Source: Candidatus Buchananbacteria bacterium
GTDB taxonomy: Bacteria > Patescibacteriota > Patescibacteriia > 2-01-FULL-39-33
Length of the DNA: 64,000 nucleotides
Reading direction: 5' to 3'
Assembly (NCBI GenBank): GCA_903888345.1
Contig: CAISTG010000004.1
Location: 6,393 to 70,392, forward strand
Of this stretch, positions 7,739 to 62,356 are shown one piece after another (the stretch's first letter is position 1; each line of letters begins with the position of its first letter). The translations under genes and the position numbers were made by a program. A model generated the notes under the pieces. That model was not told the origin of the DNA, did no database searches, and saw nothing but the letters and a program-made list of their open reading frames with translations.

Positions 7739-8857
7739 TTACTGGAGTTCGATCTCCACCAACCGGCGATTAATGTCGTACTTGTACTGCTCCTGGCATT
7801 TCTTGGTCAGGGCGTCTTGGAAGGCCAGAACGTCTTCCTTGGTGGTCAGTGAAGCGAGCGTCCATAGCACCCAGCGGTAGGGGCTATCGCTAGGGAGATT
7901 GCGATCTTCGGTCAGAAACTCCAGCTGGCCAAACGGATCAAGCTGTAGCAACTTCACATAGATGGCGTCGCAGAGTTCTCCACGCTCGAGATACTCTTCG
8001 TGCGCGTGGCATTCAAGATTCTCTGCCACTTCGATGAATTCCCGGAGCGTCTTCGTATCTGTGATTTGCTCATGTGTCTTGACGACACGCAGAGTTGCTG
8101 CGCGCACCAATGCGTAGGCAGCAATTTCCCATTTCATGGAGCTTTTGTCCCAGCCAAAGGGATGCTCAGAGAGCTCCTTTTTTAATACATTGATTTCGGC
8201 TAGTGTCGTCTGTTCCGCGATTTCCTTGGAGAAATCATCGAAGAGCATCGCGGTCACGGTGAGGTGGCTTTTCATGGACTTGATGACAGCTCGCCTGGTG
8301 ACGAAGTTCGGTGCCGATTTGACGTAGGCGTTCGACGCTTCATCACTGAAGCCATCGCGTCCGACCAGTTGCCAGGCGCGGTGGAATTCGTCATAGCTGG
8401 AAAAGTTGTCGGTATAGACGACCGTGCGACGCGCCCAATATTCGGGCAGCCGTTTGCTGGTCCAGTACTTTTCCAGGTCGTCCAGCCGCAGGTAGTAGAG
8501 GCCGTAGGAAACGTTTTTTGACGCTAGAGCGTCGAACAGATTGGCGCCCTTGGTTTCGCAGAGGGCTCGAGCGGTTTCTACCCACTCTTTTTCTTCTGCT
8601 TTCTTGGCGCGTCTTTCTTCTTCATTCTGACGCGCCGCTTCCTGTTGGCGCAAGGCCCAGGCGGCCAACTCTTGTGCTGCGGCTTCCTTTTTGTCCTTTT
8701 TGGCCTGTTCGTACTCGTCTTGCTTCCGCTTTTTTTCTTTGATTTCAGAAAGGGAACATTTGACAATAATCGCGGCGATAGCAGCAACTACGACAAGGAT
8801 TCCCAGAAAAAACAGACAGATTCCAGTCATGGAACTCATAATCTTTCTCCATGCCAC
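7739..8857 (-). CDS. Hypothetical membrane-anchored protein (GC-rich cassette I1)
   Basis: The ORF opens with GTG at 8857. A better start is the ATG at 8839, which has a GGAG SD, giving MSSMTGICLFF with a TM helix. A KE-rich coiled-coil segment follows, then about 230 aa with no recognisable domain. Codon third positions are strongly C/G, unlike the neighbouring genes. Confidence 0.6.
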   Translation of the reverse strand: MAWRKIMSSMTGICLFFLGILVVVAAIAAIIVKCSLSEIKEKKRKQDEYEQAKKDKKEAAAQELAAWALRQQEAARQNEEERRAKKAEEKEWVETARALCETKGANLFDALASKNVSYGLYYLRLDDLEKYWTSKRLPEYWARRTVVYTDNFSSYDEFHRAWQLVGRDGFSDEASNAYVKSAPNFVTRRAVIKSMKSHLTVTAMLFDDFSKEIAEQTTLAEINVLKKELSEHPFGWDKSSMKWEIAAYALVRAATLRVVKTHEQITDTKTLREFIEVAENLECHAHEEYLERGELCDAIYVKLLQLDPFGQLEFLTEDRNLPSDSPYRWVLWTLASLTTKEDVLAFQDALTKKCQEQYKYDINRRLVEIELQ

Positions 8858-8929
8858 CTTGCGATGGCTCTTGTTGTAAGGTCCGACAACACCCAGAATT
8901 GACCCTTGCCAATCTTAGTGTAATATCTA

Positions 8930-8958
8930 ATTATAGCATATAGTGTTAAATTTGTCAA
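8930..8958 (-). promoter_or_regulatory. Consensus sigma70 promoter (TTGACA-17-TATAAT) for the 7739..8857 gene
   Basis: Reverse complement reads cTTGACAaatttaacactatatgcTATAAT. Confidence 0.6.
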
Positions 8959-9158
8959 GTAGTTATCAACAGCCTATTAATTTTTATGTTTAAATTTAGC
9001 TAAAATATTTATCGTATATACTTGATTATCGCTTAAATTAAAGCAAATCTTGGCGCGTGACCGAATTATCAATATTTCAGTGCGAAGTTTTTATTTGAGG
9101 ATAAATTTCGGTTTTAGTCAAATTAGGAGTATAATTAAAGTAATTAATACCTTAATTT

Positions 9159-9485
9159 ATGAAACTTAAACACTTGTATCTAATTTTGTGTGTGATCGCT
9201 GTTATTTTAACTTATTCGCAAATGCTGCCGTTTCTGGCGGCCAACAATAATGACATTCTGGTTTTGTTTCAGCAGATGTTTATTAATCAGGGAGTAGGGT
9301 TCTTTTCCATGGATCTCTTAGTTTTATCACTCGTCGCTTTGGTTTTTATGATTGTCGAGACTAAGCGCTTGCATTTAAAATATCTCTGGTTGCCAATAGT
9401 GGCGATTTTTATGGTCGGCATGTCGTTGGCGTTGCCGTTATTTTTATTTTTGCGTGAACTACAATTAGAAAAATCTAAAATATAA
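9159..9485 (+). CDS. Small integral membrane protein (3-4 TM), function unknown
   Basis: 108 aa and hydrophobic. A TATAATTAA -10 lies upstream at about 9128. Confidence 0.5.
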   Translation: MKLKHLYLILCVIAVILTYSQMLPFLAANNNDILVLFQQMFINQGVGFFSMDLLVLSLVALVFMIVETKRLHLKYLWLPIVAIFMVGMSLALPLFLFLRELQLEKSKI

Positions 9486-9489
9486 ATTT

Positions 9490-9963
9490 ATGAAATTCAA
9501 ATGGAATTATGCAGTGATCCCACTCAGCGTGATCGCTATTTCAGTGGCCGGCAGTTTAGTGACTGGCGGTAATATGAATTGGTATCGCGCTTTGAATTTG
9601 CCCCCAATCGCGCCACCAGGTGCCTTTATTGGCGCTGTCTGGACCGTAATCTTTATCCTGTCAGCTATTTCCATCTTATTATTTTGGAATAAAGAAAAAA
9701 ATAAAAAAGTAAAAAAGAATCTGGCGGAGTTATTTTTACTTAATGGGTTATTAAATTTATTATGGAGCATCGTCTTTTTCGGCTTGCATTTGATCGGTTG
9801 GTCGATTGTAGAAATGCTGGCTTTAAATATTACTAATCTCGTATTGATCGTCTGGCTCTGGCGCCGGAAAAAGCAGGCCGCCTCGATCCTCTTGTGGCCG
9901 TATTTTGCCTGGGTTAGTTTTGCGACCTACTTGGCCTATTCAGTGTGGTTACTAAATCGTTAG
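9490..9963 (+). CDS. tspO: TspO/MBR family tryptophan-rich sensory protein
   Basis: 157 aa with 5 TM segments and Trp-rich motifs (WYRALNLPPIAPPGAFIGAVWT and LWPYFAWVSFATYLAYSVWLLN) characteristic of TspO. Confidence 0.8.
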   Translation: MKFKWNYAVIPLSVIAISVAGSLVTGGNMNWYRALNLPPIAPPGAFIGAVWTVIFILSAISILLFWNKEKNKKVKKNLAELFLLNGLLNLLWSIVFFGLHLIGWSIVEMLALNITNLVLIVWLWRRKKQAASILLWPYFAWVSFATYLAYSVWLLNR

Positions 9964-10009
9964 GTCTTGAACAATATATCAGATTATGCTATGCTAATTT
10001 GATATCAAT

Positions 10010-11026
10010 ATGACTAGCAACAATAAAACAATCGGTTTAGTGCCGGTGATAGCGGCAATTCTGGGTAATTTCACCGTTACCTTTTTGAAATTTGCCGCTT
10101 TTTTCTTTTCCGGTTCCAGTGCGATGTTTTCGGAAGGCATCCATAGTGTCGCGGACACCGCTAATCAGGTATTTTTAGCGGTCGGCTTGCGTCGGTCTAA
10201 AAAGCTACCGGATGAGGATTTCTTATATGGCTATGGTAACGAACGATTCTTTTGGGCGCTCATATCGGCCTGTGGTATTTTCTTTATCGGTGCCGGTGTT
10301 ACTATCTACAAGGGTATTAATACTTTACTTACTGCTGGTGAAGTTCACTTTAATTTTTTTACAGTTATTGTCTTGTTAGTGTCGTTCGTGATTGAGTCGA
10401 TTACTTTGGGTTTGGCGATTTACGAATTACGCACGCATAATCCCGGTAAGTCGGCGTTAGAAATTTATGCTGATGGTGATCCCTCCACTTTAGCCGTTTT
10501 ATTAGAAGACAGTGTCGCCTTAATTGGTATCTTGGTGGCGTTCGCCAGTATCGGTTTGAGTTATTTAACTGGCCAAACATATTTTGATGCTATCGGCTCG
10601 ATTATTATTGGTTTGATGTTAGCGGTCGTGGCGATTATTTTGATCACCAAGAATCGCGAATATTTAATTGGCCGTGCTATTCCTGATGATTTGCAAGATG
10701 ATATTATCGATGTTTTGGAGGCAGAACCGGCAATCGAAAAGATTTTAGACTTTAAATCCCAGACTCTTGATGTCGGCATTTATCGCATTAAGTGTGAGAT
10801 CGAATTTAATGGTTATGTCTTACTGAAAGAAATTTATCAATCGCGCGGCACGACCCTACGAGAGGACTATAATGATGTTAAAGATGATTTTGAAGAATTC
10901 AAAAAATTCTGCGCTGATTATGCTGATCGTTTACCGCGCTTAGTGGGTAAGAAAATCGATGATATTGAAAATACTCTAAAGCTGAAGTATCCTAGTATTA
11001 AGTATATCGATATTGAAATCAATTAA
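10010..11026 (+). CDS. Cation diffusion facilitator (CDF) family metal efflux transporter
   Basis: Six TM segments with a HSVADTANQ motif in TM2 and HD-type metal sites, followed by a C-terminal cytoplasmic domain. Confidence 0.75.
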   Translation: MTSNNKTIGLVPVIAAILGNFTVTFLKFAAFFFSGSSAMFSEGIHSVADTANQVFLAVGLRRSKKLPDEDFLYGYGNERFFWALISACGIFFIGAGVTIYKGINTLLTAGEVHFNFFTVIVLLVSFVIESITLGLAIYELRTHNPGKSALEIYADGDPSTLAVLLEDSVALIGILVAFASIGLSYLTGQTYFDAIGSIIIGLMLAVVAIILITKNREYLIGRAIPDDLQDDIIDVLEAEPAIEKILDFKSQTLDVGIYRIKCEIEFNGYVLLKEIYQSRGTTLREDYNDVKDDFEEFKKFCADYADRLPRLVGKKIDDIENTLKLKYPSIKYIDIEIN

Positions 11027-11035
11027 AATTTACGA

Positions 11036-11068
11036 TAAAAAAATCCCGCTGCTATGGCGGGATTTTTT
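11036..11068. terminator. Bidirectional terminator between the CDF gene and the giant-protein gene
   Basis: ATCCCGC-tgctatg-GCGGGAT hairpin flanked by an A-run and a T-run. Confidence 0.75.
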
Positions 11069-11079
11069 AATGAGATTAT

Positions 11080-14000
11080 TTATCTGACTTTATCAGTCAA
11101 GATGGTGAAAATTGTTTTGATACCCTTGTCGACGTTTTTGATGTTTTTGAGACTAACGGATTCATCGCCGACATAACCCATCATTTCATTTTTGGCGGCA
11201 TTAAAGGAGAAGTGCATATCGCCTAATTGCTCGGCGGCTAGATGGTTGATTGGCGGTGGTACATCAAAATTTAATTCGCCACCCTTGTAAGAAATATTCT
11301 TGACAGCGAAATCGGCAGCGTCGGCAGCTGAGTATTCTTTGGCAACGCCGAAGTGACGGAAGATACTATCTAATGATTTGCCAATGCCCCGTTCGTTATG
11401 AGTATTGGCCATCAAGTCAGTTACTTTTTGCCATTCACTCATAGTTGCAGAGTCTTGGTAACTCTCGACATTAGTTGGTAGCGGGAAAATTTCAGAAGTT
11501 GGTGCAGTGACTTGTTCGACGCCGGTAGTAGCGAGTGTTTCGGAGGTACCGCCGGTCCCAGTCATTAAGTGCTCAGTTCTTAGCGGACCAACGGGTAAGT
11601 TATCGGGAATATGACCAGTTGCGTTGGCGGCGTGAATAGCTGCTTCCTGCGATTGTTGTAAGGCATGGGCGGCGGCATCGGCCGATAATCCTTGATTATG
11701 TAGTTGGCTCATCGTGTCATAGGCCTGTTGATTCAGATGGATGCCTTTGGGTAGATGTTCGACAACCTGTTGATTGAAAGCATTATTGGCTTCGATATGT
11801 TTAACCGCTTCGGCTGATAAATTACTGGCTTGCTCGGCGAAGGATTCCTTATTAAACATTCCACCGATTACTTCGTTGAAGTGATCGTTCTGGGAAATTT
11901 TTTCTAAGTCAGCAGGAGTTAAAATATCAATGTTAGCCCCTTTATGTAAGCCAAAGAGTTCGGGATTTTTAGCAATTTGATCTTTGATGTTATCAATGAT
12001 GTGAGTTTCTCGGCCGTCAGAAATACTGGGGGCATGTAAATGATTAATTAAGGTATCAACTTTTTTATCAATGAGGCCCCAGAGGTGAGGAGACTTGTCG
12101 CCATGAACGCCTCGCATTTCTTTAATGGCATCGGCAAGTGGATTAACTTTCGGAGCTTCGATAACCGCGGCAGCAGCACCCGTTGGGTGTGCTTGTTCTA
12201 CTGCGGCAGCAGCAACATTAGGACTGGTCGGAGTGCCGGCCTCAATGGGAGTCCCCCAATGTGAATGAATATAATCCATGGCCACATGACCAATGGTTGG
12301 TGCCAGCGCCGCCGCTAGACCAACGGTAATCATGCCACCATATTTGAGTAAATCCTTTTTTTGTTTATCTGAAAGAGCGCTATCTTTGAGGGTTTGTAAT
12401 TTAAGCGCTAGTGATTCTGGTGTGTCATTATCGGTGATTTTCATGGCTTCATAATCATTATTGCCCCACTTTTTTTCACCAATTGCTTTAAAAGCTCTTT
12501 CTGCTGTCCACATGGCCATCGGAACACGGGTAATCCACATTTCACGAGCCGCAATAGTTCCAAGGCCCAGTAAGACAGCCGTGAACGCTCGTTGATAATT
12601 ATTACCGCCACCCTTAACCATGAAGCCACTAATGGCTGATGTGACTTTTTGTGGAAACTTTAATATTCGACTATCAGATCGTTTAATTTTATCTGATAAT
12701 CCCTCGATTGCAGTCATTTCTTTCTCGAATGTTTTCTGATCAATTTTCTGAAGTGTTGATAATGATTTAATAATATCAGCACGTTTTTCTACTTCAACAT
12801 CAGCTAGTAATTCATCATTATCTTTAATAAAATCATTGAAGACAAATTTGCGATTGCCGTTGATACGTTTTTGTTGGGTGATGGCCGCTTCAGTAAAAAA
12901 TTGTTTTAAGAAAGCCTCCCGACTGTCGGGATCAGCTTCGAGGGCAGCTCGCATTTTGGCATACTTGGCATCAACTAGCTTCTTTTGTCTGCGGTCGGTG
13001 ACAAAATTATCAACCACTCTTGCTCCGGCGATTGTTGCCACGGTGCCGATACCGGCAGTGGCGCCAGTTAAGAGAGCGGCGGCCCCAACACCGGCACCAA
13101 TGCCAAGATAAACACCAAATTTTGTTAGTTTTGCTTTACGAGCCGCAGCAATGTTTGTGCTGGCCTCATCAGCGGTAGTGACATCAGCTAAACGCCCAGC
13201 ATTGATTTCAATCAAAGCTAGTTTTCTTAATCGTTCTTCCTGGTTACTGATTAAATCCTCGGCTTGTTCTAAGGTTAAGCCGGTTTCTTTGGCTAGTTGA
13301 TTGGCTAATAATTTTTGTTTAGTTTGGTGATCAAGGCTTTTGCTGTCGAGTAGGGTAGCTAATAGCTCTTTACGCAAAGCTTCTTGTGAAATTGTTTTCT
13401 TGCCTTCGGGCGAGAAAATATCTTTGATAGTTTGACTACCTTTCATGATAAGCTCTTCAACCTTACTGGATTTAACAAATTCAGCTTGAGCCGCAGCTGT
13501 AGCCTTAATTTCATCTTCAGTGAGAATACGTCCTTCTGTCCTGGATGTTTTCGCTAAAAGTTCTCTGAGTTGGGTTTGATTAGAGATGTTTCTAATGTTA
13601 GGTTGGTTCTCGGCTTTAGTGGCCTTTGGTTTACGTTTTGGTTTGGGGATTGGCGGGGGAGTGGCGTTATCTTCCACGATAGGCTCTGTTTCTTCTACGG
13701 CTGGGGCCGGTGTTTCTGCCGGTTCAACGGTTGACTCTACAGCTGGTTCATTTGCCTGCTGTTCTTCCCATTGATTATGCCAAACAAACATAATGCTATT
13801 ATATGTTTCATAATCCTCTTCAATTTCGATTTGCAAAACAGTTAAAATATCAAGAGTCTCGTTTGGTTTTAATTTTTCAGTGGCCTTTTTTAATCTTTCT
13901 TCAAATCTCGCTTTTATATCAAGCAACTTTTGTCGCATTCGTGGATTAATTAGATCTTTATTGTCTTCGTATAACTGATTAAATTCTCCAATCTTGGCGC

Positions 14001-16312: not shown

Positions 16313-16442
16313 ATGTGGATTGCTATATTTTTTCCACTAGTTGGTAATTCATGGGAGAATTAGTCAATCATTGTAGCTAATTGGATATCTTTCAATTAAG
16401 TTTAGGTGGTTGTACTAATGATTGCAAAGAGAATAAGCAGTA

Positions 16443-16490
16443 AAAAAAAGAAGCGCCGTCCGGAAAACCGGGCGGCGCAATTGTAGATAA
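16443..16490 (-). terminator. Intrinsic terminator of the 16502..16849 gene
   Basis: GCGCCGCCCGG-tttt-CCGGACGGCGC hairpin followed by TTCTTTTTTTT on the minus strand. Confidence 0.8.
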
Positions 16491-16501
16491 AAATGTTCGA
16501 T

Positions 16502-16849
16502 CTAGGAGAGTTTTAACTCTCCTTCCTTATACCAACCAACACCGCCCTGATCGTGGCGTACAATGAAGACTTTGCCTTGGGTCGTCATCCTTTCATCGAT
16601 AATTATTCCCCTGGCATTTGGTATGCGCTTGCCTCCGAACGTGTCGGTATTGATCTCAGCCGGGGTGATGACTTTGGTTCCGTACCGCATGTTTTTTGGT
16701 TTGGTCGACCGATACAGGAACCAATAGATTGTTGCCGCGATACCCCAGCTCAATACGGCAAATTGCCAGTGGAGGGTCGATACGAATACAAGTGCGAACA
16801 ACATACAGAGGGTCGCGAAAAATTCCAGACTCGACTTATACTTGCTCAT
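16502..16849 (-). CDS. Small 2-TM membrane protein with a C-terminal beta-rich domain (GC-rich cassette I2)
   Basis: 115 aa with an AAGGAG SD 8 nt upstream and C/G-ending codons. Carries its own promoter and terminator. Confidence 0.65.
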   Translation of the reverse strand: MSKYKSSLEFFATLCMLFALVFVSTLHWQFAVLSWGIAATIYWFLYRSTKPKNMRYGTKVITPAEINTDTFGGKRIPNARGIIIDERMTTQGKVFIVRHDQGGVGWYKEGELKLS

Positions 16850-16977
16850 CTTTAGACTCCTTTCCTCTTTGAGGATTGTATTTCGGTTAACTTAATTCTC
16901 TGGTTTTAGGATAAAAAGTAGAAAATTTACTTATTGTCCTAAAATCAAGTAATTACGCCATTTCGCTAATAATTAGT

Positions 16978-17006
16978 AGTATAACATACAAAATATAATT
17001 TGTCAA
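16978..17006 (-). promoter_or_regulatory. Consensus sigma70 promoter (TTGACA-17-TATACT) for the 16502..16849 gene
   Basis: Reverse complement reads TTGACAaattatattttgtatgtTATACT. Confidence 0.6.
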
Positions 17007-17121
17007 TTATTTAATGGGTTAATCACTGTTAAATTAGGGAAATATATTTAATCAATTTAATAATATTTATCTAAATTTAAACAAAATATCAATTATTATT
17101 ACTAAATAGTGGATAAAGTAC

Positions 17122-17150
17122 TTGACAAAATATGATAGTTGTGCTATACT
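17122..17150 (+). promoter_or_regulatory. Consensus sigma70 promoter (TTGACA-17-TATACT) for the 17245..18066 gene
   Basis: Reads cTTGACAaaatatgatagttgtgcTATACTg. Confidence 0.6.
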
Positions 17151-17244
17151 GATATATTACACTAAGTTTGGCAAAAGGCCAGGCTAGGGTGTAGGGACCT
17201 ACAAAAACAGGGAATAATCCCTAAAACAAAAGAAAGGGCATACT

Positions 17245-18066
17245 ATGCCTGACAACGACACGAACGCCAACGTCAACGTTACCGAAACCGCAGCGACTCA
17301 GAAGGCTTCATGGAGCGAGCGGAGCAGGGCCTTTTTCCGCAAGATCAACCTGAGGAAGGTTGCTCCCATTGCCATGTTCGCCAGCTTCACCGTTTTGCTC
17401 CTCGTCGCTCTGATCCTGATCGGTATGCAGGCCGCCCAGGAAGTGAACTCAGTCAAAGCGACGGCCAATCAGGCGCTGTCTTTGGCCGCAACCACCTCCG
17501 ATCGGGTCGACACCGCCGAACAGGGGATTGCCCTACTCGCCGGAGAAAATCAGGCGCAGAATCAGCGCTTGACCGCCGTGGAACAAGCGACAGTGGTCGC
17601 GAGCGAAACTGCCACTGCTGCTGTCGCCAAAGCGGACACAGCCAATTCGCGGTTGAACGCGAAGAAGAAGGCCGATAACCAGTTGCACAAGCAGCATGTC
17701 GCCTACATCCGCGGTGCCAATCCTGACAGTCCGATTGCCAAGAAGAGCAACGCTGAAATCGAGGCGTTGCTCAATGATGGCATCTGGAACATCGAAGGCG
17801 ATATTCAGACCGAGTTTGATCGGCTGATCGCTCTCGCTGCTGCCCAGGCCAAGCAGACGGCCGACAGTGTCGTGGAGACTGCCAAGCTGACCGCCACCAA
17901 GTTGGAAGCGGTTGACGTGACGGCGACAAAGGCGCTTGCTGCCGGCGACACCGCAGTCTCGGGGATCAAAGTGATCGCCGATCAGCCTAACAAGCTTTTT
18001 GGCAAGTCGGTCAACGGCGACTCCAAGAAGACTCTCCAAGAGCTGGTGGCCACTTACTCCAAGTAA
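17245..18066 (+). CDS. Membrane-anchored Ala/Thr-rich coiled-coil protein (GC-rich cassette I3)
   Basis: 273 aa with one TM helix (MFASFTVLLLVALILIGM) followed by an Ala-rich helical ectodomain. About 55% GC. The antisense ORFs at 17310..17678 and 17533..18039 are GC artefacts. Confidence 0.65.
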   Translation: MPDNDTNANVNVTETAATQKASWSERSRAFFRKINLRKVAPIAMFASFTVLLLVALILIGMQAAQEVNSVKATANQALSLAATTSDRVDTAEQGIALLAGENQAQNQRLTAVEQATVVASETATAAVAKADTANSRLNAKKKADNQLHKQHVAYIRGANPDSPIAKKSNAEIEALLNDGIWNIEGDIQTEFDRLIALAAAQAKQTADSVVETAKLTATKLEAVDVTATKALAAGDTAVSGIKVIADQPNKLFGKSVNGDSKKTLQELVATYSK

Positions 18067-18104
18067 GCGACCACACCAAAAAAACGTTCATTTTCGACCA
18101 AACC

Positions 18105-18137
18105 GGACGGAGCAACAATTGCTCCGTCTTTTCTTTT
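18105..18137 (+). terminator. Intrinsic terminator of cassette I3
   Basis: GACGGAGCA-acaa-TTGCTCCGTC hairpin followed by TTTTCTTTTG. Confidence 0.8.
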
Positions 18138-18240
18138 GTCTAAAAATATCTATTGTGGATAATCAGTACTAATTTATTAGCTTGTAACTCCGAATTATGT
18201 TATAATTAAATTAACTTTGTTAAGTAAGTGGCAACTTAAA

Positions 18241-20207: not shown

Positions 20208-20221
20208 TTCAATTTGAAGAT

Positions 20222-20740: not shown

Positions 20741-20773
20741 TATCGGTCGCTATAATTTTATCAATTGCGCTTT

Positions 20774-49376: not shown

Positions 49377-49405
49377 TTGACAAAGTTGATTTTTCTGCGT
49401 ATAGT
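49377..49405 (+). promoter_or_regulatory. Consensus sigma70 promoter (TTGACA-17-TATAGT) for cassette I8
   Basis: Reads aTTGACAaagttgatttttctgcgTATAGT. Confidence 0.6.
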
Positions 49406-49462
49406 GTCAACAGCTCTTTTACAGCAACCACGGTCCATATAACCAAATAGGAGGCACAGATT

Positions 49463-50938
49463 ATGGACTTTCACCAACCGGAACCGGCCGCAGTTAGTCA
49501 CACCGTTTTATTGATTTTTTCGGTCATTTCTATGAGCACTATGATGGGTACTCTCTTGTCACAGTGTGATTCTAGTCCGCCGGTAATTACTCTTAGTCCG
49601 GTTTCTCAGGTAGCCAATCCTGGTTCGCGGGTGGAGTTCGCGGTTGTAGCCACTGGGGGTCGCGCTTATTCTTGGAGTCATGACGGTCAAGAAATTTCCG
49701 GTCAGACGGAGGCGTCGCTGGTCTTTGACCAGGCCGCTCAAGAAAATGAGGGCAGCTATACCTGCTTGGTTTCTAACAATCAAGGCTCGGTCGTGACTGA
49801 ACCAGCTACCCTGGATGTTAATGATCCGCCAGTGATTGTCGAAAACTTTACGTCGCAAACAGTGACCGAGGGTCAGGAGTTAATTTTGACTGGTCAAGTT
49901 AGTGGCACAGAACCGTTCACTTATCGGATTTTACACAACAACAAATTAGTGGCGGAAACCGCTGAATGTCGTTGGCGTATTGAGCAGGTAACTCTGGATG
50001 ATATTGGTCCCTGGCGTTTTGCCGTGACTAATGTTACAGGGATTTCACTTCGCTCAGATCCGGTCAATGTGATCGTGAAACCAATTATTATTACGCCCGA
50101 AGGAGAGGGCGAGGGTGAAGGTGAGGGCGAGCCGCCGATCGAGGGTGAGCCGGAACCTATCTTGTGTCAGCAGAATTTCTGTGCGACAGCCAATGATGGC
50201 GATAATGCGAGTTCGCCGATTGATAAGAGTTTTTGTGAATATTTCGCTGATCTATTTACAAATGCTCCGCGAGACCTATTGGGTAATTATGTAAAGTTTG
50301 TTAATCTGTTCGATCCTAGTAAGCCGGGCGATATGAATGGTGCTTCATCCATTGACAAGTCTCAGGGTGAAGATAAAATGACAATTCAGGTCGGGAGTAA
50401 CCATATTCCTGATTGTGCCTACGAACTAAAATTGATCGAGGCAGTATTGCTAAAGCGAGATTTCTGCGAGTGTCACAGTGGTTTAAGTCATAAGCTGGTT
50501 CATGAGGCCTGGAATTTCAATATGGCCCGACTATCGCAAGATTTTGCTGGCTTGTATTGGACTTTGGCCGATGCAGTTTTGCCAGGCTTCAAGCAGATCT
50601 TGTGTGCTCATATGATGATTGGTAATGGCAATATCCAGTATTATAAGGATGATGTTCTGGTGCCGTTAACTGATCCGGAAAATGCCAATGCCAATAAAGT
50701 TATCGGTTATGGCTCAGGTGGCTTGGTTCAAGGAATCGCTTTCCTGCTGGGCAAAAATATTGCCAACTCTCGTTTGAATTTAGCGGATTATGCAACTTTG
50801 CCCGAATACTTTGGTCCGGATGGCGATGCTGATGGTGATGGAACAACTAATGCCGAAGAGTATGATGCTTTTGGATCTACTCCCGAGGCTTATGTGGCAG
50901 CAGCCCTTGATCCCGAAATCCATCTTGATAAGAAGTAG
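49463..50938 (+). CDS. Secreted or membrane-anchored protein with two Ig-like (I-set-type) domains, G/E-rich linker and a C-terminal domain bearing a DxDxDG Ca-binding-like motif (GC-rich cassette I8)
   Basis: AGGAGG SD. Domain 1 has W...DGQ and the EGSYTCLVSN Ig signature. Domain 2 runs FTSQTVTEGQELILTGQ...GPWRFAVTN. Linker PEGEGEGEGEGEPPIEGEPEP. Tail GPDGDADGDGTTNAEEYDAFG. Confidence 0.6.
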   Translation: MDFHQPEPAAVSHTVLLIFSVISMSTMMGTLLSQCDSSPPVITLSPVSQVANPGSRVEFAVVATGGRAYSWSHDGQEISGQTEASLVFDQAAQENEGSYTCLVSNNQGSVVTEPATLDVNDPPVIVENFTSQTVTEGQELILTGQVSGTEPFTYRILHNNKLVAETAECRWRIEQVTLDDIGPWRFAVTNVTGISLRSDPVNVIVKPIIITPEGEGEGEGEGEPPIEGEPEPILCQQNFCATANDGDNASSPIDKSFCEYFADLFTNAPRDLLGNYVKFVNLFDPSKPGDMNGASSIDKSQGEDKMTIQVGSNHIPDCAYELKLIEAVLLKRDFCECHSGLSHKLVHEAWNFNMARLSQDFAGLYWTLADAVLPGFKQILCAHMMIGNGNIQYYKDDVLVPLTDPENANANKVIGYGSGGLVQGIAFLLGKNIANSRLNLADYATLPEYFGPDGDADGDGTTNAEEYDAFGSTPEAYVAAALDPEIHLDKK

Positions 50939-50951
50939 AACTTTAGATCCC

Positions 50952-50987
50952 TGAGCGGGAGGAGAAATTCTTCCGCTTTTTTATTTC
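50952..50987 (+). terminator. Intrinsic terminator of cassette I8
   Basis: AGCGGGAGGAGAA-att-CTTCCGCT followed by TTTTTTATTT. Confidence 0.6.
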
Positions 50988-51852: not shown

Positions 51853-53337
51853 TTATCTAACTTTAATTTTCAACTTTTCTTTTTCTTTGGGAATAACCAC
51901 CTGAGTACCATCAGGCGAGAATTCAGCTTCGAGTAATTGTTTCAAGTTGGCACTGCCAGTTTCTTCTCCGTGGAGAATAAAGATGGTTTGACCAGTTGCT
52001 TCAACTGAAAGAACGGCCTTGGCGTAATCAACGAGTTCAGAGCAATCAGCATGAGCCGAAAAACTTTGAAACAATTTGATTTGCGCTTTGATAATAACTT
52101 CTTGGCCATTCATATTGACTTTGGCAGGATTGCCTTGAAGTTTTCGGCCTAAGCTTGCCGGTGACATGTAGCCAACCAAACAAACAATAGTCTGATCACT
52201 GGGCAAATTGACGCGCAGGTGATTTCTCACGCGTCCCGCATCACACATTCCAGATCCGGAAATAACAATCAGTGGTGCCATTTTTCCGGCCAACTGGATT
52301 GATTCCTCATAGTCGGTAATAAATTGGACGTAAGGATTTTCTTTGTTAAACGGATTAAAGTCCAGCGTGTGCTTGTTTTTGAATGATCCTAGATCCCAGT
52401 ACTTGGCATAGACTTCAGTCAGCTTTACCGACATCGGGGAATCCAAGTAAATTGGAATGTCGGGTATTTTACCAGATTTCATGGCGAGCGTGAGCAAATA
52501 GATCAATTCCTGACTTCGTTGCAGAGCAAAGGAGGGGATGATAATCTTTTTGCCGCTTGAAGCGGCTTCGGTAATCGTCGCAAACAATTCATCAACTTCA
52601 GGTTGACGTTCCGGATGATGCTTATTTCCGTAAGTCGATTCGGTAAACCAGCAATCGAGCGGTTCTTTGACTACTGCCGGCGGATAAAGAAGCATACCTT
52701 CTTGCCGGCCCAAATCGCCGCTGAATCCTAAACGTAGGACTTTTTTGCTTTTCGGTTCCGTCATCGTCAAAACGGAAATGGCTCCACCCAAAATATGTCC
52801 TGAGGCATAAAACTTCAAAGTCATCTGATTAGACAGTTTGACTTGCTCTTTGTAGGTCAAGCCAGATTTCATAATCAAATTAATCGCCTTGGCGACATCA
52901 CGTTCCGTAAACAAGGGCCCAGTTTCTTTCGAGGTGCGGTCTTTGTTACGGGGGCGTTCATCGGCATGTTGGCACTTTCTTTTGGCCAACTCGCGCTGAA
53001 TCTTAAAAGAGTCAGCCAGCATGATAGGAATTAGGTCAGCCGTTTGTTTGGTACAGAGCACTTTTCCTTTAAAGCCGTTATTTACCAAAAACGGCAACAG
53101 GCCGACATGGTCAATATGAGCATGGGTGATGATGACGTAGTCAACTTTAGCCGGATTAATGCTTTTGAGCAGTTTGGAATTGTTGGCAAAAAAGTTTTTG
53201 ACATCGCCCTGAACTAGGCCGACATCAACCAGAATAGTCGTAGTCTTTTTTCCGCAGCTGACCGAAATTGCAGTGCAAGAACCGGTCAGATTGTCCGATG
53301 TGGCTAGGCCGCCGAGAAATTCCAGCGATACATCCAT
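51853..53337 (-). CDS. MBL-fold beta-CASP family ribonuclease (RNase J / CPSF-like)
   Basis: Metallo-beta-lactamase motif ITHAHIDHVG and downstream His/Asp ligands, followed by beta-CASP and C-terminal RNA-specificity regions. Confidence 0.65.
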   Translation of the reverse strand: MDVSLEFLGGLATSDNLTGSCTAISVSCGKKTTTILVDVGLVQGDVKNFFANNSKLLKSINPAKVDYVIITHAHIDHVGLLPFLVNNGFKGKVLCTKQTADLIPIMLADSFKIQRELAKRKCQHADERPRNKDRTSKETGPLFTERDVAKAINLIMKSGLTYKEQVKLSNQMTLKFYASGHILGGAISVLTMTEPKSKKVLRLGFSGDLGRQEGMLLYPPAVVKEPLDCWFTESTYGNKHHPERQPEVDELFATITEAASSGKKIIIPSFALQRSQELIYLLTLAMKSGKIPDIPIYLDSPMSVKLTEVYAKYWDLGSFKNKHTLDFNPFNKENPYVQFITDYEESIQLAGKMAPLIVISGSGMCDAGRVRNHLRVNLPSDQTIVCLVGYMSPASLGRKLQGNPAKVNMNGQEVIIKAQIKLFQSFSAHADCSELVDYAKAVLSVEATGQTIFILHGEETGSANLKQLLEAEFSPDGTQVVIPKEKEKLKIKVR

Positions 53338-53512
53338 TGCTTTCTCCTTGGTTGATGGTTGCGGACGTTGTGAGGGGTAATGATGGCCTTATATTTTCAA
53401 GGAACTGAAACTATCTTTCTGGTTTTCATCTTATAGTATAATCAAATTTTATGCAAATTTAATAGATTTTGTGCCGATATTTGATAATACTCAACATTTA
53501 TCGGTAAAAAAA

Positions 53513-53560
53513 GCCGTCCCGCCTCAGTTTTGATAAACTGAGATTGGACGGCAGTTAAGG
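53513..53560 (-). terminator. Intrinsic terminator of plsX
   Basis: Long hairpin GCCGTCC..CTCAGTTT-tgat-AAACTGAG..GGACGGC. On the minus strand it is followed by TTTTTTTACC. Confidence 0.7.
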
Positions 53561-53562
53561 TA

Positions 53563-54738
53563 CTAAAATTTTTGCTTAATGGTTTCTACCACCTGCATTT
53601 TGGCTTCTTGCTTGGCGCGGCGAATGGCGTTGGCAATAGCCATCGAGTCAGATTTGCCATGACTGATAATCAAAATACCGTTAACTCCCAGGAGGATGGC
53701 GCCACCAACTTCTTTATAGTCAGAGCGTTTGTGATGGTTCCAGAAAAAGGAAACAAATTTCCATAGTATGCCCATCTTGTCTTTGACTAAATTGAGTACG
53801 CCCTCGCCGACTTTAATAGTGTTGTTGCCCATCTCGCCGGAGCAAACAATTACATTAACATCGTCGGTAAAAACTTTGTCGCCTTCGATGTTGCCCTGAT
53901 AATTTATTTTTCCGTCTAGCGAACCATCAGGGAGTCTTTTGTGCTTCTTATTTCCCAAATCCCAATAAGAGTTGCTATGGAGGAGACTGTCAGCACCCTT
54001 GATGTCGGGATTGCCCTTGCCTGCTTCACCGCCAATATTTAGCAATTTAACAATCGGCTCTTCTATTTGCCACATGGCTTGGGCATAAATTGATCCCATC
54101 AGGGCACAGTTGTATAAATCTTCGGCCGAGGCGCGATGAATCGCTCCCGCATCAAGAATCAGACAGCCATTGGAATTATTATTAGGCAAAGGGACGGCAA
54201 TCGCTGGCTTCACATTTTTTCCTGGTTTGCCCAGGATAAATGATCCTAGCCCGACCATGCCAGCAGTATTGCCGGCGGAAACTAAGGCGCGAGCTTTTGC
54301 AGTTTTTACCATATTGATGCCAATACCCATGGCGGAAGTGCGACGTTTTTTACCGATTGTATTATAGTCGTCATCCATCTCGATCTTGTCGGTACATTCC
54401 AGGGCGAGGACACCTTCGAGTGGATTTTTGAAGATCCGCAAAAATTGCCAACAGCGATCAATCCAACTCAATTCGTAGAATTTCTTGATGGCTGCGGAAG
54501 TGCCGATAGCAATAATTTCCTCCGGTTCAACAAAGTCTTCAATAATGGCTTTTTTGATGCCTCTTTTAACCGCGTCCGGTGCATTGTCGCCACCATCTAA
54601 GTCAACGACAATGATCGTCTTTGGCTCCTCTGGTTCGTCGTTGAGAATTTGCGGTACACGACGGCGTAGCCTGTTGATGGTTCGCTTGAAGACGCCAATA
54701 AAATCTTCCCAATGTTCGCGAAGCTTTTCTTTATCCAT
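53563..54738 (-). CDS. plsX: Phosphate acyltransferase PlsX
   Basis: Blocks VDLDGGDNAP, VSAGNTAGMVGL, LDAGA, NIGGE, VIVCSGEMGNNTIK and LLGVNGILIISHG match PlsX. Carries an N-terminal extension of about 40 aa. Confidence 0.8.
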   Translation of the reverse strand: MDKEKLREHWEDFIGVFKRTINRLRRRVPQILNDEPEEPKTIIVVDLDGGDNAPDAVKRGIKKAIIEDFVEPEEIIAIGTSAAIKKFYELSWIDRCWQFLRIFKNPLEGVLALECTDKIEMDDDYNTIGKKRRTSAMGIGINMVKTAKARALVSAGNTAGMVGLGSFILGKPGKNVKPAIAVPLPNNNSNGCLILDAGAIHRASAEDLYNCALMGSIYAQAMWQIEEPIVKLLNIGGEAGKGNPDIKGADSLLHSNSYWDLGNKKHKRLPDGSLDGKINYQGNIEGDKVFTDDVNVIVCSGEMGNNTIKVGEGVLNLVKDKMGILWKFVSFFWNHHKRSDYKEVGGAILLGVNGILIISHGKSDSMAIANAIRRAKQEAKMQVVETIKQKF

Positions 54739-56157: not shown

Positions 56158-56404
56158 ACTTTAGTTGTAGCCATTAATTAACCGGACCACGGGCGTCGCT
56201 AGAATCTGGCCCAAGCCTAGCGAAAACCTTAATCGTTTCCCAGTACCGCTTTTTATTAAATTGCGGATTTGCTTTAATTTGTAAGGTAATTATAACAAAA
56301 GATGCTTTAAAAGTCAATATTAGACTAATAATTAAATATAGTGAATATATTTTATCTAAATTTAAACAAAAAACTGAATCGAGAAATCCTTTGGTTGGCG
56401 CTGA

Positions 56405-56433
56405 TTGACTTTTTGTTGTTTTACTGATATAAA
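56405..56433 (+). promoter_or_regulatory. Sigma70-like promoter (TTGACT-17-TATAAA) for cassette I9
   Basis: Reads aTTGACTttttgttgttttactgaTATAAAt. Confidence 0.5.
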
Positions 56434-56489
56434 TAGGTATTCAAGTGAATTTGAATACGTACCTAAACATTCAGAACAAAGAGGAGTTC

Positions 56490-56816
56490 ATGGTTATGAA
56501 CATGCAGCCAGTTATTAATGGATTAATTGAGAATTATGATTCCAAATTAAGCAAGACTTGGGTTAATTTACCCTCTTCATTTGCACTTCATTCGGGAATT
56601 GAATCCTTGGTTATGTGTGGTTTTTTAACGCCGGAGGACATTCAGTGGGTTTGGCAGTATGGAAAAATTTCCTTCGGTATGAACGAGAGGCAATTTCGAT
56701 CACTGAGAAGTCGTGCTCAGCGTTACCACGCTGAAAGATTGAGGGCGGGAAGGGAATTTGAAAAAAATAACGCTCGATTACGACAGCAGAACTTCAACCC
56801 CAAAAGGACCTATTAA
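56490..56816 (+). CDS. Hypothetical protein of about 108 aa (GC-rich cassette I9, gene 1)
   Basis: AGAGGAG SD immediately upstream. The start is ambiguous among the ATGs at 56490, 56496 and 56502. C/G-ending codons. Confidence 0.5.
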   Translation: MVMNMQPVINGLIENYDSKLSKTWVNLPSSFALHSGIESLVMCGFLTPEDIQWVWQYGKISFGMNERQFRSLRSRAQRYHAERLRAGREFEKNNARLRQQNFNPKRTY

Positions 56817-56817
56817 A

Positions 56818-57117
56818 ATGAATCTGGAGCTTATTGGCGGTATCGTCTTCGTGTTGTTTCTTGTTGGCGTGACGGTCTGGCTGTTTCAGATGTGGCTGTC
56901 AGCAGTAAAGTGCGGGCGACAACTGTTGGCCCAAGATCAATTGCAGTCGATGCAGGCGGTGCTGGGAAAGCGGCCGAGCGAGTCTGTTCCTATGTTCGAT
57001 GGCGAGACCAGGATGTATTGTCTGATTAACGTAATCTTCGGCGGGCTGACCTGCCTAATGATTGGTTATCTCGCAGTTGCTGGCTTGATTAGTTGCGGTC
57101 TCTATCTTTGTTCTTGA
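56818..57117 (+). CDS. Small 2-3 TM membrane protein (cassette I9, gene 2)
   Basis: The start was set at the ATG at 56818 (MNLELIGGIVFVLFLVG), 2 nt after gene 1's stop. The listed 56758 ORF overlaps gene 1. A terminator at 57133-57172 follows (CCCGTG-tcggacaaaagtgg-CACGGG then a T-rich run). Confidence 0.5.
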   Translation: MNLELIGGIVFVLFLVGVTVWLFQMWLSAVKCGRQLLAQDQLQSMQAVLGKRPSESVPMFDGETRMYCLINVIFGGLTCLMIGYLAVAGLISCGLYLCS

Positions 57118-57220
57118 ACTGAACCTTTTCCCGTGTCGGACAAAAGTGGCACGGGATTTATTTTATCTTTTGGATTGACTTTAATTATAAAAAATAATAG
57201 AATTTGAGAATTAACTATAT

Positions 57221-61128: not shown

Positions 61129-61152
61129 ATGTTTAGATTAAAAAACTCTCAT

Positions 61153-61209
61153 CCCGAAAACACACCTTGGTTAAAGATATATTTTCGGGACGAGAGTTTA
61201 TTCCCGCGG
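61153..61209. repeat. 17-18-bp inverted repeat with 21-nt loop
   Basis: AAACTCTCATCCCGAAAA ... TTTTCGGGACGAGAGTTT. Confidence 0.7.
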
Positions 61210-61232
61210 TTCCACCCAAATTTCCTTCTTAA

Positions 61233-61308
61233 GGCTGTCATCCTGAACAAAGTGAAGGATCTCATGTTAATCTTAAATGGGACTCTTCGTTTCACTCAGA
61301 ATGACGAC
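61233..61308. repeat. Intergenic repeat copy (GTCATCCTGAACAAAGTGAAGGATCTC ... GTTTCACTCAGAATGACGAC)
   Basis: The 3' part is the reverse complement of the 5' end of the copy at 359-436 (CGTCATTCTGAGTGAA), and the 5' part resembles the same box in forward orientation. Confidence 0.6.
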
Positions 61309-61446
61309 TTATAAGTCGGACGCTTTTTGACGGGCTTAGTACGGCAAGCCGTAAAGTTGACGGAAATTTCCGACAGTCTTAGACAGTTGGTATCTGCCTC
61401 AATCGCTTAAACTTATTATACGTTATTTTATTCAAATAAACAAACA

Positions 61447-61475
61447 TTGACAAATTTTGTCATATACTGTATAAT
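61447..61475 (+). promoter_or_regulatory. Consensus sigma70 promoter (TTGACA-17-TATAAT) for cassette I10
   Basis: Reads aTTGACAaattttgtcatatactgTATAATa. It lies about 170 nt upstream of the ORF. Confidence 0.55.
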
Positions 61476-61642
61476 ATATCATTAGCTCATTGACATGTTG
61501 ATAAGTTTGATGTCCCGGCTTTCTTTTTGTTTAATTTAAGCTAAATTAGATAGAAAGAAAGTCTGGACCATTGAAAGTCCTGGCTTCTTCTTGGCCATAG
61601 TGGTCGAGAATACTGCCTCACAGAGGCGGAAAGACACACACC

Positions 61643-62356
61643 ATGAGTAAAACAACCGCAAAGGCCCTTTTGGCTGCACTCGGAATCCTAACGGAAGAAG
61701 AGATGAAAGAATGGACCGAAGGGCCAGGAGAAGTGAAGGATTTCTTGGCGGCTCGTGTCGCTGAGAAGATGGCGAACACCTTCTGTGTTTCGCTGTCGGA
61801 CAACGAGCTTCAGCAGCAGTTCCCGCAGTTCGCCGATCGTCTCGTTCCCTGGCGCAAGCTGGCGGCTCTGATGGGCTACACTGGCCATATTGTTTGGCTC
61901 GTCAAGCAGGGCTTCACGCTGAAAAAGCATGCCCCGCTTGTCGGCCCCTGTTACGATAATCTCGGCTATCTCCAGGACTGGAATTTCGATGACAATCCTA
62001 CCGATGATTGCCTGGTATTCTGGGTGCCCCGTTTGGCGGAAAACAGCACGGGCAAGAACATCAAGGCAATGGAAGCGCACCGCGCCGAACTCAAGAAGCG
62101 CTATGAGCTTCCTGGCGACCATGCCACGTATTTCGGTAGCATTCAGCTCCAGTTCGCTCTCATTCTCGCGCATTTCAAGCGCACGGGTGAACGCGTACCG
62201 CTGAATTTCCTCTACATGGCGTCTGACTCCCTGAGCGCAGACGGCAGCCGTCTCATTGCTGGCCACTTCGGCGACTTTGGTCTCCACTGCCACTACTGGG
62301 GTGGGAATGGCTGCGACGATATCGGCTTCGTCCTCCTGGGGGTGGAGAAGCTCTGA
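61643..62356 (+). CDS. Hypothetical protein, 237 aa (GC-rich cassette I10)
   Basis: C/G-ending codons. The antisense 61688..62293 ORF is a GC artefact. A terminator follows at 62403-62440 (GGGACCTTGG-tcatcgta-TCGAGGTCCC then TTTTTTTATT). Confidence 0.6.
   Translation: MSKTTAKALLAALGILTEEEMKEWTEGPGEVKDFLAARVAEKMANTFCVSLSDNELQQQFPQFADRLVPWRKLAALMGYTGHIVWLVKQGFTLKKHAPLVGPCYDNLGYLQDWNFDDNPTDDCLVFWVPRLAENSTGKNIKAMEAHRAELKKRYELPGDHATYFGSIQLQFALILAHFKRTGERVPLNFLYMASDSLSADGSRLIAGHFGDFGLHCHYWGGNGCDDIGFVLLGVEKL

Follow-up and report, generated by a model that had tools for sequence, protein, structure and literature searches.

The 64,000-nucleotide stretch of Candidatus Buchananbacteria DNA analyzed here (contig CAISTG010000004.1 of 71.6 kb, positions 6,393 to 70,392 of the forward strand; hereafter the window) carries ten units, c1 to c10, that read as transcriptionally autonomous cassettes, each with a promoter, a leader of 80-196 nt, a Shine-Dalgarno (SD) sequence, one to six open reading frames (ORFs) and an intrinsic terminator; they are placed among AT-rich housekeeping genes that are largely leaderless or lack SD sequences. 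On a modest balance of probability, the cassettes are accessory units internal to the Patescibacteria, with base composition and expression signals intrinsic to each gene family, and are not imports from outside the group; the families that could be traced (c10, c6, and c4e from the c4 operon) were found only in related bacteria, and two of them are GC-rich whatever the host. The cargo consists of lineage-specific accessory proteins: a lectin-fold protein of the type diversified by diversity-generating retroelements (DGRs), a receiver-domain protein with an ATPase and small partners, a surface protein with immunoglobulin (Ig) domains, a CYTH paralog, and several membrane-anchored proteins. An earlier note on this DNA had described autonomous promoter-SD-gene-terminator units in intergenic gaps, among them a six-gene operon and an Ig-domain product, and this reading of the anatomy was correct. 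The units are as follows, in window coordinates.

c1, 7679 to 9008, minus strand: 22-nt element at 8987-9008; promoter TTGACA-17-TATAAT with the -35 box at 8958; leader of about 85 nt with a 5' hairpin; coding sequence 7739-8839, or from a GTG start at 8857, for a protein with an N-terminal transmembrane segment and a coiled coil; terminator 7679-7705.
c2, 16440 to 17006, minus strand: promoter TTGACA-17-TATACT with the -35 box at 17006; 157-nt leader; SD AAAGGAG; coding sequence 16502-16849 for a protein of 115 amino acids with two transmembrane segments; terminator GCGCCGCCCGG/CCGGACGGCGC followed by a T-run.
c3, 17062 to 18139, plus strand: 22-nt element at 17062-17083, common to c3 and the divergent c2; -35 box at 17122; coding sequence 17245-18066 for a protein with a transmembrane segment and an Ala/Thr/Gln-rich coiled coil; terminator 18105-18129.
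c4, 28050 to 31105, minus strand: upstream GCTAAATTTA at 31096-31105; -35 box at 31065; 189-nt leader; six ORFs at 30628-30876, 30404-30631, 29765-30280, 29514-29753, 28825-29454 (c4e) and 28100-28690 (an AAA_28 ATPase); terminator after 28100.
c5, 37075 to 37877, minus strand: palindrome TTGTCTAAATTTACAA at 37862-37877; promoter TTGACA-17-TATGGT with the -35 box at 37749; SD GAGGAG; coding sequence 37118-37669; terminator.
c6, 40259 to 41185, plus strand: element TCTAAATTTAGG at 40259-40270; -35 box at 40310; 134-nt leader; coding sequence 40444-41124; terminator 41146-41173; located between lemA and htpX.
c7, 45936 to 46890, plus strand: promoter TTGACA-16-TATAAT; SD GAGGAG; coding sequence 46024-46647, with a possible additional ORF at 46619-46828; terminator 46850-46878.
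c8, 49377 to 50986, plus strand: promoter TTGACA-17-TATAGT; SD AGGAGG; coding sequence 49463-50938 for a signal-anchored protein with Ig-like domains (Ig_3, I-set); terminator 50955-50976.
c9, 56347 to 57167, plus strand: 22-nt element at 56347-56368; promoter TTGACT-17-TATAAA with the -35 box at 56405; two ORFs, 56490-56816 and 56818-57117 (the latter c9b, a transmembrane protein); terminator 57130-57155.
c10, 61447 to 62440, plus strand: promoter TTGACA-17-TATAAT within the palindrome TGACAAATTTTGTCA; coding sequence 61643-62356; 3' hairpin and T-run at about 62402-62437.

The compositional contrast between cassettes and background was quantified over 49 native genes and 16 cassette ORFs from c1 to c10. 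Against an overall window GC content of 41%, the native genes average 0.406 ± 0.035 in GC and 0.388 ± 0.052 in GC at third codon positions (GC3), with a GC3 maximum of 0.506; the cassette set differs from the native set in GC3 with a Mann-Whitney p of 1e-7. Six ORFs lie above every native gene as strong GC3 outliers: c1 (7739-8839, minus strand; 0.63, z 4.6), c2 (16502-16849, minus; 0.60), c3 (17245-18066, plus; 0.73, z 6.5), c4e (28825-29454, minus; 0.66), c9b (56818-57117, plus; 0.60) and c10 (61643-62356, plus; 0.68). The shift is mild in c5 (0.52), c6 (0.52), c4d (0.53) and c4b (0.50), and c7 (0.48), c8 (0.435), c9a (0.42), c4a (0.46), c4c (0.47) and c4f (0.41) fall within or at the edge of the native range; in c8, a GC content of 50% is reached in the 5' half only. 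The earlier description of ten compositionally distinct segments is therefore an overstatement: c1, c2, c3, c4e, c9b and c10 are strongly and c5 and c6 mildly set apart, c7, c8, c9a, c4a, c4c and c4f are barely distinct, and about half of the set is clearly different. In the five strongest genes, C and G at third positions reach 0.37 and 0.30 (native genes, 0.19 and 0.20), all codon families are shifted, and the preferred codons include CAG, AAG, CTG, ATC and TTC. The native-looking genes for a beta-CASP RNase and PlsX (51853-54738, minus strand) have clear SD sequences (AAGGAG, AGGAG) and a GC3 of 0.47-0.49, near the top of the native range, and with this combination the link between SD use and GC may be graded rather than divided into two classes.

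The expression signals described in the earlier note hold up well. The -35 box is an exact TTGACA in nine of the ten units (TTGACT in c9) and lies 16-17 nt from the -10 box in all of them; the -10 box is TATAAT in c1, c7 and c10 and weaker in the others (TATACT, TACACT, TATGGT, TAATAT, TATAGT, TATAAA). Cassette promoters account for nine of the 13 scored TTGACA-type sites; good -35/-10 promoters also precede some native genes (an RNA-binding protein, RNase Y and S1), so that this feature is enriched in the cassettes but not exclusive to them. The three leaders that were folded (c1, c3 and c10) all contain stable hairpins. Pairing with the anti-SD sequence at a dG of -4.7 kcal/mol or lower was found for all 16 cassette ORFs, compared to about six of the 49 native genes (at 21804, 43508, 51853-53337 and 53563-54738, and weakly at 38059 and 58691), which bears out the claimed contrast in SD use. 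Inspection of the downstream sequence revealed a G+C stem-loop followed by a T-run 3' of all ten units, as had been proposed; the terminator scan itself lists those of c1 and c3.

The native genes show different signals. The extended -10 motif TGTTATAATTAA, which the earlier note had assigned to them, occurs seven times (five exact copies and two with one mismatch) against 1.1 expected, and -10-like boxes cluster 5-10 nt 5' of native start codons (17 boxes over 49 genes); in about one third of the native genes, for example at 7115, 19686, 42177, 51024 and 57654, a TATAAT-like box ends 5-10 nt before the start. With the boxes this close to the start codons, many native mRNAs are probably leaderless. 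The same spacing is visible in an unrelated Patescibacteria locus, L085 (loci from other genomes are designated by L numbers), and native genes with long leaders, such as those for S1 and the RNA-binding protein, still lack an SD sequence.

The origin of the cassettes was approached through their homologs. Large protein collections were searched with c1, c4e, c6 and c10; c3 and c7 were compared with phage records only. The c10 family has 149 homologs, and all named ones belong to Patescibacteria (Buchananbacteria, Uhrbacteria, Magasanikbacteria and unclassified members); c4e has at least 234 homologs, all named ones again from Patescibacteria; the c6 family comprises 1223 cluster representatives, whose sole named member is from Patescibacteria. 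IMG/VR contains no relatives of the c10 and c4e families, and phage records gave no match for c1, c3 and c7. A word-indexed search of 5.8e9 proteins returned no homolog of c1 other than itself. The cassettes are flanked by housekeeping genes (ThrRS, S1, PlsX, MurI, RNase Y, ClpP); neither the ORF lists of the window nor Pfam scans of 27 ORFs revealed phage structural, integrase or transposase genes beside them.

The composition of the c10 and c4e families belongs to the family and not to a past donor. In four other genomes, the c10 homologs have GC contents of 0.561, 0.572, 0.559 and 0.560 in backgrounds of 0.44-0.49, and in a fifth a GC content of 0.644 and a GC3 of 0.88 in a background of 0.53; in each of the six genomes seen, the window included, c10 stands out locally in GC and GC3. 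For c4e, 61 loci were fetched and composition was compared over the 35 loci of 4.6 kb or more: the gene exceeds its flanks in GC in 33 of 35, its GC3 excess over the mean of neighboring ORFs averages +0.17 with a maximum of +0.45 (0.66 vs. 0.24 in L030; 0.80 vs. 0.35 in L078), and in two hosts of 0.57 GC it falls below the background. Over 32 loci, c4e has a GC content of 0.54 ± 0.04 while host-locus GC ranges from 0.33 to 0.57, with a regression slope of 0.24. In L085, no other gene of the locus reaches the GC3 of the c6 homolog. The expression signals recur as well: an SD sequence is present in 21 of 26 c4e homologs, and TTGAC(A/G/T)-N15-19-TAnnnT occurs within 400 nt upstream in 14 of these 26, the cleanest cases 76-131 nt upstream; among other GC3-outlier ORFs in unrelated Patescibacteria loci, 11 of 14 are SD-led, compared to 22% of all background ORFs. 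Base composition (approximately 0.54-0.57 GC) and expression signals would accordingly travel with the family and be kept in every host whatever its GC content. Several cassettes thus occur in related genomes with the same composition, the outcome that the earlier note had itself named as speaking against repeated acquisition from a donor of different composition, a phage or mobile-element cargo pool, or a host organism.

A sister genome at approximately 87% nucleotide identity (Logan runs ERR3687823, ERR3687825 and ERR3687827) allowed a comparison of cassette sites. In its independently assembled contigs, c5, c7 and c8 occupy the same sites as in the window. The synonymous divergence (dS) of c5 (0.66) and c8 (1.24) lies within the range of the flanking genes (0.37-1.6), and both have therefore been inherited vertically since the split from the sister; the ratio of nonsynonymous to synonymous divergence is 0.10 for c5, compared to 0.02-0.05 in its flanks, and 0.08 for c8, not clearly above its own flanks (0.05-0.07). 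The c8 protein retains 83% amino acid identity to its sister copy in global alignment (79% by tblastn). For c7, the identity is 46% (52% in local tblastn alignment) and the dS 2.6, between flanks of 91-94% identity and a dS of about 0.6, which points to the exchange of c7 for a distant allele at an unchanged site. In the sister loci L006-L008, the gap between lemA and htpX measures 98 nt, and the whole c6 unit (element, promoter, gene and terminator) is absent, in agreement with the suggestion that c6 sits between normally adjacent genes. The proposal of repeated acquisition is thereby upheld to the extent that some turnover has occurred (c6, c7); c5 and c8 speak against it.

Deeper comparisons concern c10 and c4e. 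The c10 gene is found at the same chromosomal position in L009, L011 and L083, with upstream synteny shared between L009 and L011 and downstream synteny between L011 and L083. For the pair L009 and L011, identity is 46-67% in the flanking genes, whose synonymous sites are saturated or nearly so (dS of 1.8 or more), and 74% in c10, with a dS of 0.75. A clpP / RNase Y / TrmB neighborhood is kept around c4e in many genomes, the window included; yet c4e identity stays at approximately 43% whether the RNase Y of the host is 44% or 81% identical, and c4e homologs only 43% identical, with conserved ends and promoter, occur in genomes whose flanking genes are 81-84% identical. In the close pair L047 and L059, c4e is conserved in its promoter, its 40 initial codons and its 3' end, and replaced in its center.

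Two further differences from the sister genome concern units outside the cassettes. A gene of native composition without SD sequence at 34400-36382, coding for a 660-amino-acid methyltransferase-domain protein, does not occur in the sister, in which cmk comes directly after the TrmB-like gene; differences in gene content are therefore not limited to GC-rich cassettes. At 42177-42533, a 118-amino-acid gene of the 23S_rRNA_IVP family (Avd-family four-helix protein; GC 0.30) is bracketed by 32-nt inverted repeats (42129-42160 and 42525-42556; 94% complementary). The entire unit, 42129-42556, is absent from the sister, in which htpX is followed directly by ymdB, and it looks like a small mobile insertion.

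The c10 product is a DGR-type variable protein, with a C-type-lectin/FGE-like fold and a C-terminal variable region; its placement in this family follows from the fold and from an active homolog in L009. DGRs are common in bacteria of the candidate phyla radiation, according to two publications (PMC8144416, PMC11661182). The L009 locus, part of a 191-kb contig (JGI 3300029288), contains a complete DGR in a Patescibacteria chromosome (10598-12707), composed of a variable region (10598-10705), a template repeat (11156-11263), an Avd gene (11316-11708, minus strand) and a reverse transcriptase gene (11778-12707); the variable region and template repeat are 81% identical, and every mismatch falls at a template adenine. 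Only the target gene of this DGR is GC-rich; the reverse transcriptase and Avd genes are native in composition. No template repeat for c10 was found anywhere in the 64-kb window, and tblastn with the L009 proteins located neither a DGR reverse transcriptase nor an Avd gene; c10 is thus an orphan or remote target. The only Avd-like gene of the window, the 23S_rRNA_IVP gene described above, lies 19 kb from c10, unaccompanied and unrelated-looking. Adenine mutagenesis by a DGR was also considered as a cause of GC-richness and rejected, since c1 and c3 have an excess of A on the coding strand (AT skew) and the genes for reverse transcriptase and Avd in L009 do not depart from native composition.

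The leader of c10 (61482-61642) spans approximately 160 nt and folds into three hairpins (z = -5.5), in support of which six sequences provide six covarying pairs. Four genomes (the window, L009, L011 and L083) have almost the same promoter and leader, the window and L011 do not differ at all in the 60 nt that precede the start codon, and the leader is better conserved than the protein. Leaders of this type are located at 9805-10000 in L009, at 9841-10000 in L011, and upstream of 8001 in L083 and L084. The c10 leader has no Rfam match and is a candidate for a new cis-regulatory RNA.

Within the c4 operon, c4e is a stand-alone receiver-domain protein with a CheY-like (beta-alpha)5 fold and a conserved acidic pocket; it also contains a large variable insertion and a conserved HHxHPASAAFD motif. 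An intercistronic hairpin is repeated within c4 (28731-28755 and 30372-30396; CTGAGCAAGT..AAACTGCTC on the cassette strand) and may represent an mRNA processing or stabilizing element. In at least 10 other Patescibacteria loci (L039, L047, L059, L065, L067, L068, L070, L074, L024, L058), TrmB-like genes adjoin c4e homologs in divergent orientation; at these loci, one or two tiny GC-rich, SD-led ORFs often precede the c4e gene, much as in the window operon. The window has its own gene of this type:

TrmB-family regulator, native, 33682-34419 (unit 33658 to 34419), plus strand: Pfam TrmB at 7e-13, with TGTCAAAAATTTAGACA just 5' at 33658-33676.

A 22-nt element, ATATTTTATCTAAATTTAAACA, lies 29-39 nt 5' of the -35 box at c1, c2/c3 and c9 (three matches against none expected), and weaker CTAAATTTA palindromes are present at c4, c5 and c6. 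Several cassettes may thus share one regulator that would bind a TCTAAATTTA-type palindrome approximately 45-55 nt 5' of the -35 box. The palindromes near the -35 boxes, the related palindrome 5' of the TrmB gene, and the adjacency of TrmB and c4e genes together suggest that the TrmB-family protein controls several cassettes, which makes it a candidate regulator. A short tandem repeat, ACTTTCCACTTTTAACTTTCTAACT, lies at 27399-27465, directly 5' of clpP.

For most of the cassette proteins, Pfam, NCBIfam, PHROGs and PADLOC indicated no function, and none matched defense-system models. Hydrophobic segments, N-terminal or internal, can be read from the translations of c1, c2, c3, c6, c8 and c9b. 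The c5 product is CYTH-like and paralogous to the native CYTH gene at 31345-31866; the sister-genome copy, with 89% identity to c5, has 35% identity to this native gene. The c5 product matches phrog_6660 at 7.5e-23. The Ig part of c8 is similar to phage Hoc and tail Ig domains. The cassettes c1 and c3 share a paralogous promoter and 5'-terminal leader hairpin (8836-8924, minus strand, and 17156-17250, plus strand; ACACUAAG.UUGGC...GCCA...GGGUGU) with compensatory differences. Paralogy of the two proteins was rejected; they are unrelated, and only the promoter-leader modules are akin. The exact leader pattern, ATATTACACTAAGNTTGGCAA, had one match in 185,579 species-representative genomes (a Flavobacteriaceae contig, probably by chance) and none in IMG/VR, so that this leader is not widely conserved at the sequence level. 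An Rfam search of the c2/c3 leader region yielded nothing at E ≤ 1.

The remainder of the window represents a chromosome backbone typical for the candidate phyla radiation (Patescibacteria, Parcubacteria-type). It encodes ThrRS, S1, PlsX, MurI, RNase Y, LemA, HtpX, ClpP and HU, a tRNA-Ser(CGA) that was the only Rfam match of the window at gathering thresholds, and six T4SS_pilin-like paralogs; the latter form an array (19686-23169) with a conserved C-terminal transmembrane helix, and one of them (20765-21721) contains an internally duplicated Cys-rich segment. A palindromic hairpin, ATCCGCCGCGGCGGAT(TC), follows native genes in three copies (409-429, 24358-24378 and 43455-43475) and resembles a terminator or a repetitive extragenic palindromic (REP) element.

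Since the evidence for vertical residence versus exchange is mixed, the history of the cassettes requires some weighing. Favored here is exchange or replacement among Patescibacteria, combined with a force on composition at the level of the family: the units would be exchanged or replaced among Patescibacteria lineages, with the promoter-leader region and the 3' hairpin as possible recombination handles, and family GC would be kept high by biased gene conversion linked to exchange or by selection on mRNA. As a caveat, a number of observations weigh against this account. The analysis revealed no mobility gene, no vehicle and no insertion scar, and the insertion boundaries and any target duplications of c6 are not definable, owing to divergence of the intergenic DNA around it. 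Of the ten cassettes, only c10, c4e and c6 have been traced to families; half of the cassette ORFs deviate weakly or not at all in composition, and the class may thus be heterogeneous; the putative regulator is assigned by motif resemblance and gene neighborhood; and the use of SD sequences is itself putative, since the 16S 3' end lies outside the window and the anti-SD sequence has been reported lost in about half of Parcubacteria (PMC9297842). The conserved position of c10 in three deeply diverged genomes and the conserved neighborhood of c4e fit long vertical residence, c5 and c8 are vertical in the sister genome, and such cases can do without exchange; selection on synonymous sites, and not recent shared ancestry, could be behind the low dS of c10. 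The conserved positions and the vertical cases also agree with a rival that is possible but rather unlikely, namely that the cassettes form a special, vertically inherited regulon of old resident Patescibacteria genes whose GC content, SD sequences and hairpins are maintained by selection, because their mRNAs need unusual stability or a separate SD-dependent route, for example in host contact or dormancy, and that the differences from the sister reflect ordinary loss and fast divergence under diversifying selection. Family GC that stays flat against host GC resembles an equilibrium more than a decaying foreign signal, stable mRNAs are classically marked by hairpins at the 5' terminus, a CA-rich SD region and a strong 3' hairpin, features also seen here, and the c10 leader is better conserved than its protein. 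Such a regulon is difficult to reconcile with the c7 divergence between little-diverged flanks, the presence or absence of c6, a c10 dS below that of its saturated flanks, the flat identity of c4e at either level of host RNase Y identity, and c1, which lacks a detectable homolog and is thus not an old family.

As a general explanation, it is improbable that the cassettes were recently and repeatedly taken up, together with foreign expression signals, from outside the lineage, be the donor a bacterium of higher GC content, a host organism or a pool of phage morons; for c10, c4e and c6, whose named homologs are all from Patescibacteria, this view is largely refuted. It would account for the atypical GC content and codon use of six ORFs, the moron-like anatomy, the insertion of c6 relative to the sister genome, the isolation of c1, the phage-like Ig domains of c8 and the PHROG match of c5; it does not account for the absence of c10 and c4e from IMG/VR and of c1, c3 and c7 from phage records, the lack of phage or mobility genes beside the cassettes and of defense-system matches, or the fact that the same families are outliers in essentially all hosts and fall below the background in GC-rich ones. 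The AT-rich upstream element and the promoters are common to cassettes with unrelated genes, and the regulatory modules are thus local. Where it could be tested, then, the outside-donor, phage-cargo or host origin proposed in the earlier note is unsupported. It is very improbable that the cassettes are ordinary highly expressed genes, in which translational selection accompanies a strong promoter and SD sequence. In the loci inspected, ribosomal-protein and translation-factor genes are the lowest in GC3 (L20 0.28 and IF3 0.39 in L020; L25, L31, S2 and EF-Ts 0.29-0.36 in L085; S1 in the window 0.35), so that ordinary selection for translationally optimal codons was rejected as the cause of the GC bias: the cassette codons are opposite to the translationally favored set, G-ending as well as C-ending codons are shifted in all families, and a receiver-domain regulator and a CYTH paralog are not expected among the most abundant proteins, even if consensus promoters, SD sequences and terminators, and a reduced c10 dS of the kind that strong codon bias would give, point in this direction. 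An assembly chimera, in which GC-rich fragments of another organism were spliced in, could produce the sharp composition steps at cassette borders, but its probability is negligible: across the junction of clpP and c4, three independent assemblies from different samples, those that extend to clpP, agree with the window at 99.9-100% (two further assemblies cover the interior of the c4 operon only), the sites of c5, c7 and c8 are kept in independent sister contigs, and the same gene-in-context pattern repeats in dozens of unrelated contigs. The mis-assembly that the earlier note had wished to exclude is thus not the explanation.

The account favored here, of cassettes circulating within the Patescibacteria, has consequences for the use of base composition as evidence. 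Atypical GC content and codon use are routinely taken as proof of recent foreign acquisition; this inference fails here, as two families keep their own composition and expression signals phylum-wide in genomes from 33% to 57% GC, and if the pattern is general, composition-based detection of horizontal transfer would be misleading in Patescibacteria. A more far-reaching possibility, which we regard as doubtful, is that these bacteria use two expression dialects: AT-rich, leaderless or SD-less housekeeping genes with extended -10 promoters, and phylum-wide accessory families (signaling, surface and DGR-diversified binding proteins) kept at approximately 55% GC in all genomes in opposition to the mutational bias, with -35/-10 promoters, structured leaders and SD sequences. 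Base composition may then itself be a selected or conversion-maintained property of the class and not a fossil of foreign origin; it could be kept up by mRNA stability, SD-dependent translation, or biased gene conversion during cassette exchange. No description of a gene class with phylum-wide GC buffering coupled to a separate promoter, leader and SD syntax was found in the literature searched. If general, the two dialects would amount to a second regime of transcription and translation initiation in organisms whose ribosomes are already unusual (a part of the Parcubacteria lacks the anti-SD sequence), and the combined signature of GC3 outlier, SD sequence, -35/-10 promoter and terminator would pick out likely genes for regulation and for host or phage interaction, including DGR targets and a conserved 5' leader RNA, in uncultured symbionts.

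Each of the known systems that the cassettes resemble differs from them in some respect. As a DGR variable protein, c10 is like Mtd of Bordetella phage BPP-1, TvpA of Treponema denticola and TaqVP in its C-terminal variable region; the L009 homolog has Avd, reverse transcriptase and template repeat as its neighbors, and c10 itself has a hairpin 3' of the variable region. To our knowledge, a conserved, structured 5' leader of 160 nt and outlier status of the whole gene in GC content are not described features of DGR targets. Compared to single-domain response regulators of the CheY type, c4e differs by its insertion and HHxHPASAAFD motif, has no match to Pfam Response_reg, and is not adjoined by a histidine kinase; its named members are confined to Patescibacteria and are GC outliers in their hosts.

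Integron gene cassettes are likewise small, single-gene, mobile-looking units with unrelated cargo, but they are promoterless, carry attC sites and are arrayed by an integrase, whereas the units described here have their own promoter and terminator and are dispersed over 55 kb; the ORF lists and Pfam scans of the window contain no integrase-like ORF, and no dedicated attC search was made. In the amelioration framework of Lawrence and Ochman, acquired genomic islets are judged by atypical composition, and the cassettes share with such islets the atypical GC3 and codon use, patchy presence and many orphan proteins; they differ in that their homologs are confined to the same phylum and that family GC, almost independent of host GC with its slope of 0.24, gives no sign of amelioration despite the long residence implied by synteny. 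Phage morons, which consist of one gene or a small operon, possess a sigma70-type promoter and a factor-independent terminator of their own; they separate two genes that are neighbors in related genomes and deviate from their surroundings in nucleotide composition (Juhala et al. 2000; Hendrix et al. 2000). The anatomy of c6 is an exact match. All ten cassettes possess a promoter and an intrinsic terminator of their own; the compositional likeness is strong for c1, c2, c3, c4e, c9b and c10, mild for c5 and c6, and missing for c7, c8, c9a, c4a, c4c and c4f; insertion between otherwise adjacent genes applies to c6 but not to c5, c7 and c8, which are present in the sister genome. Unlike morons, which reside in phages or prophages, the cassettes are located in a cellular chromosome with no phage genes nearby, several of them are inherited vertically, and their composition is offset in the same way in every host genome.

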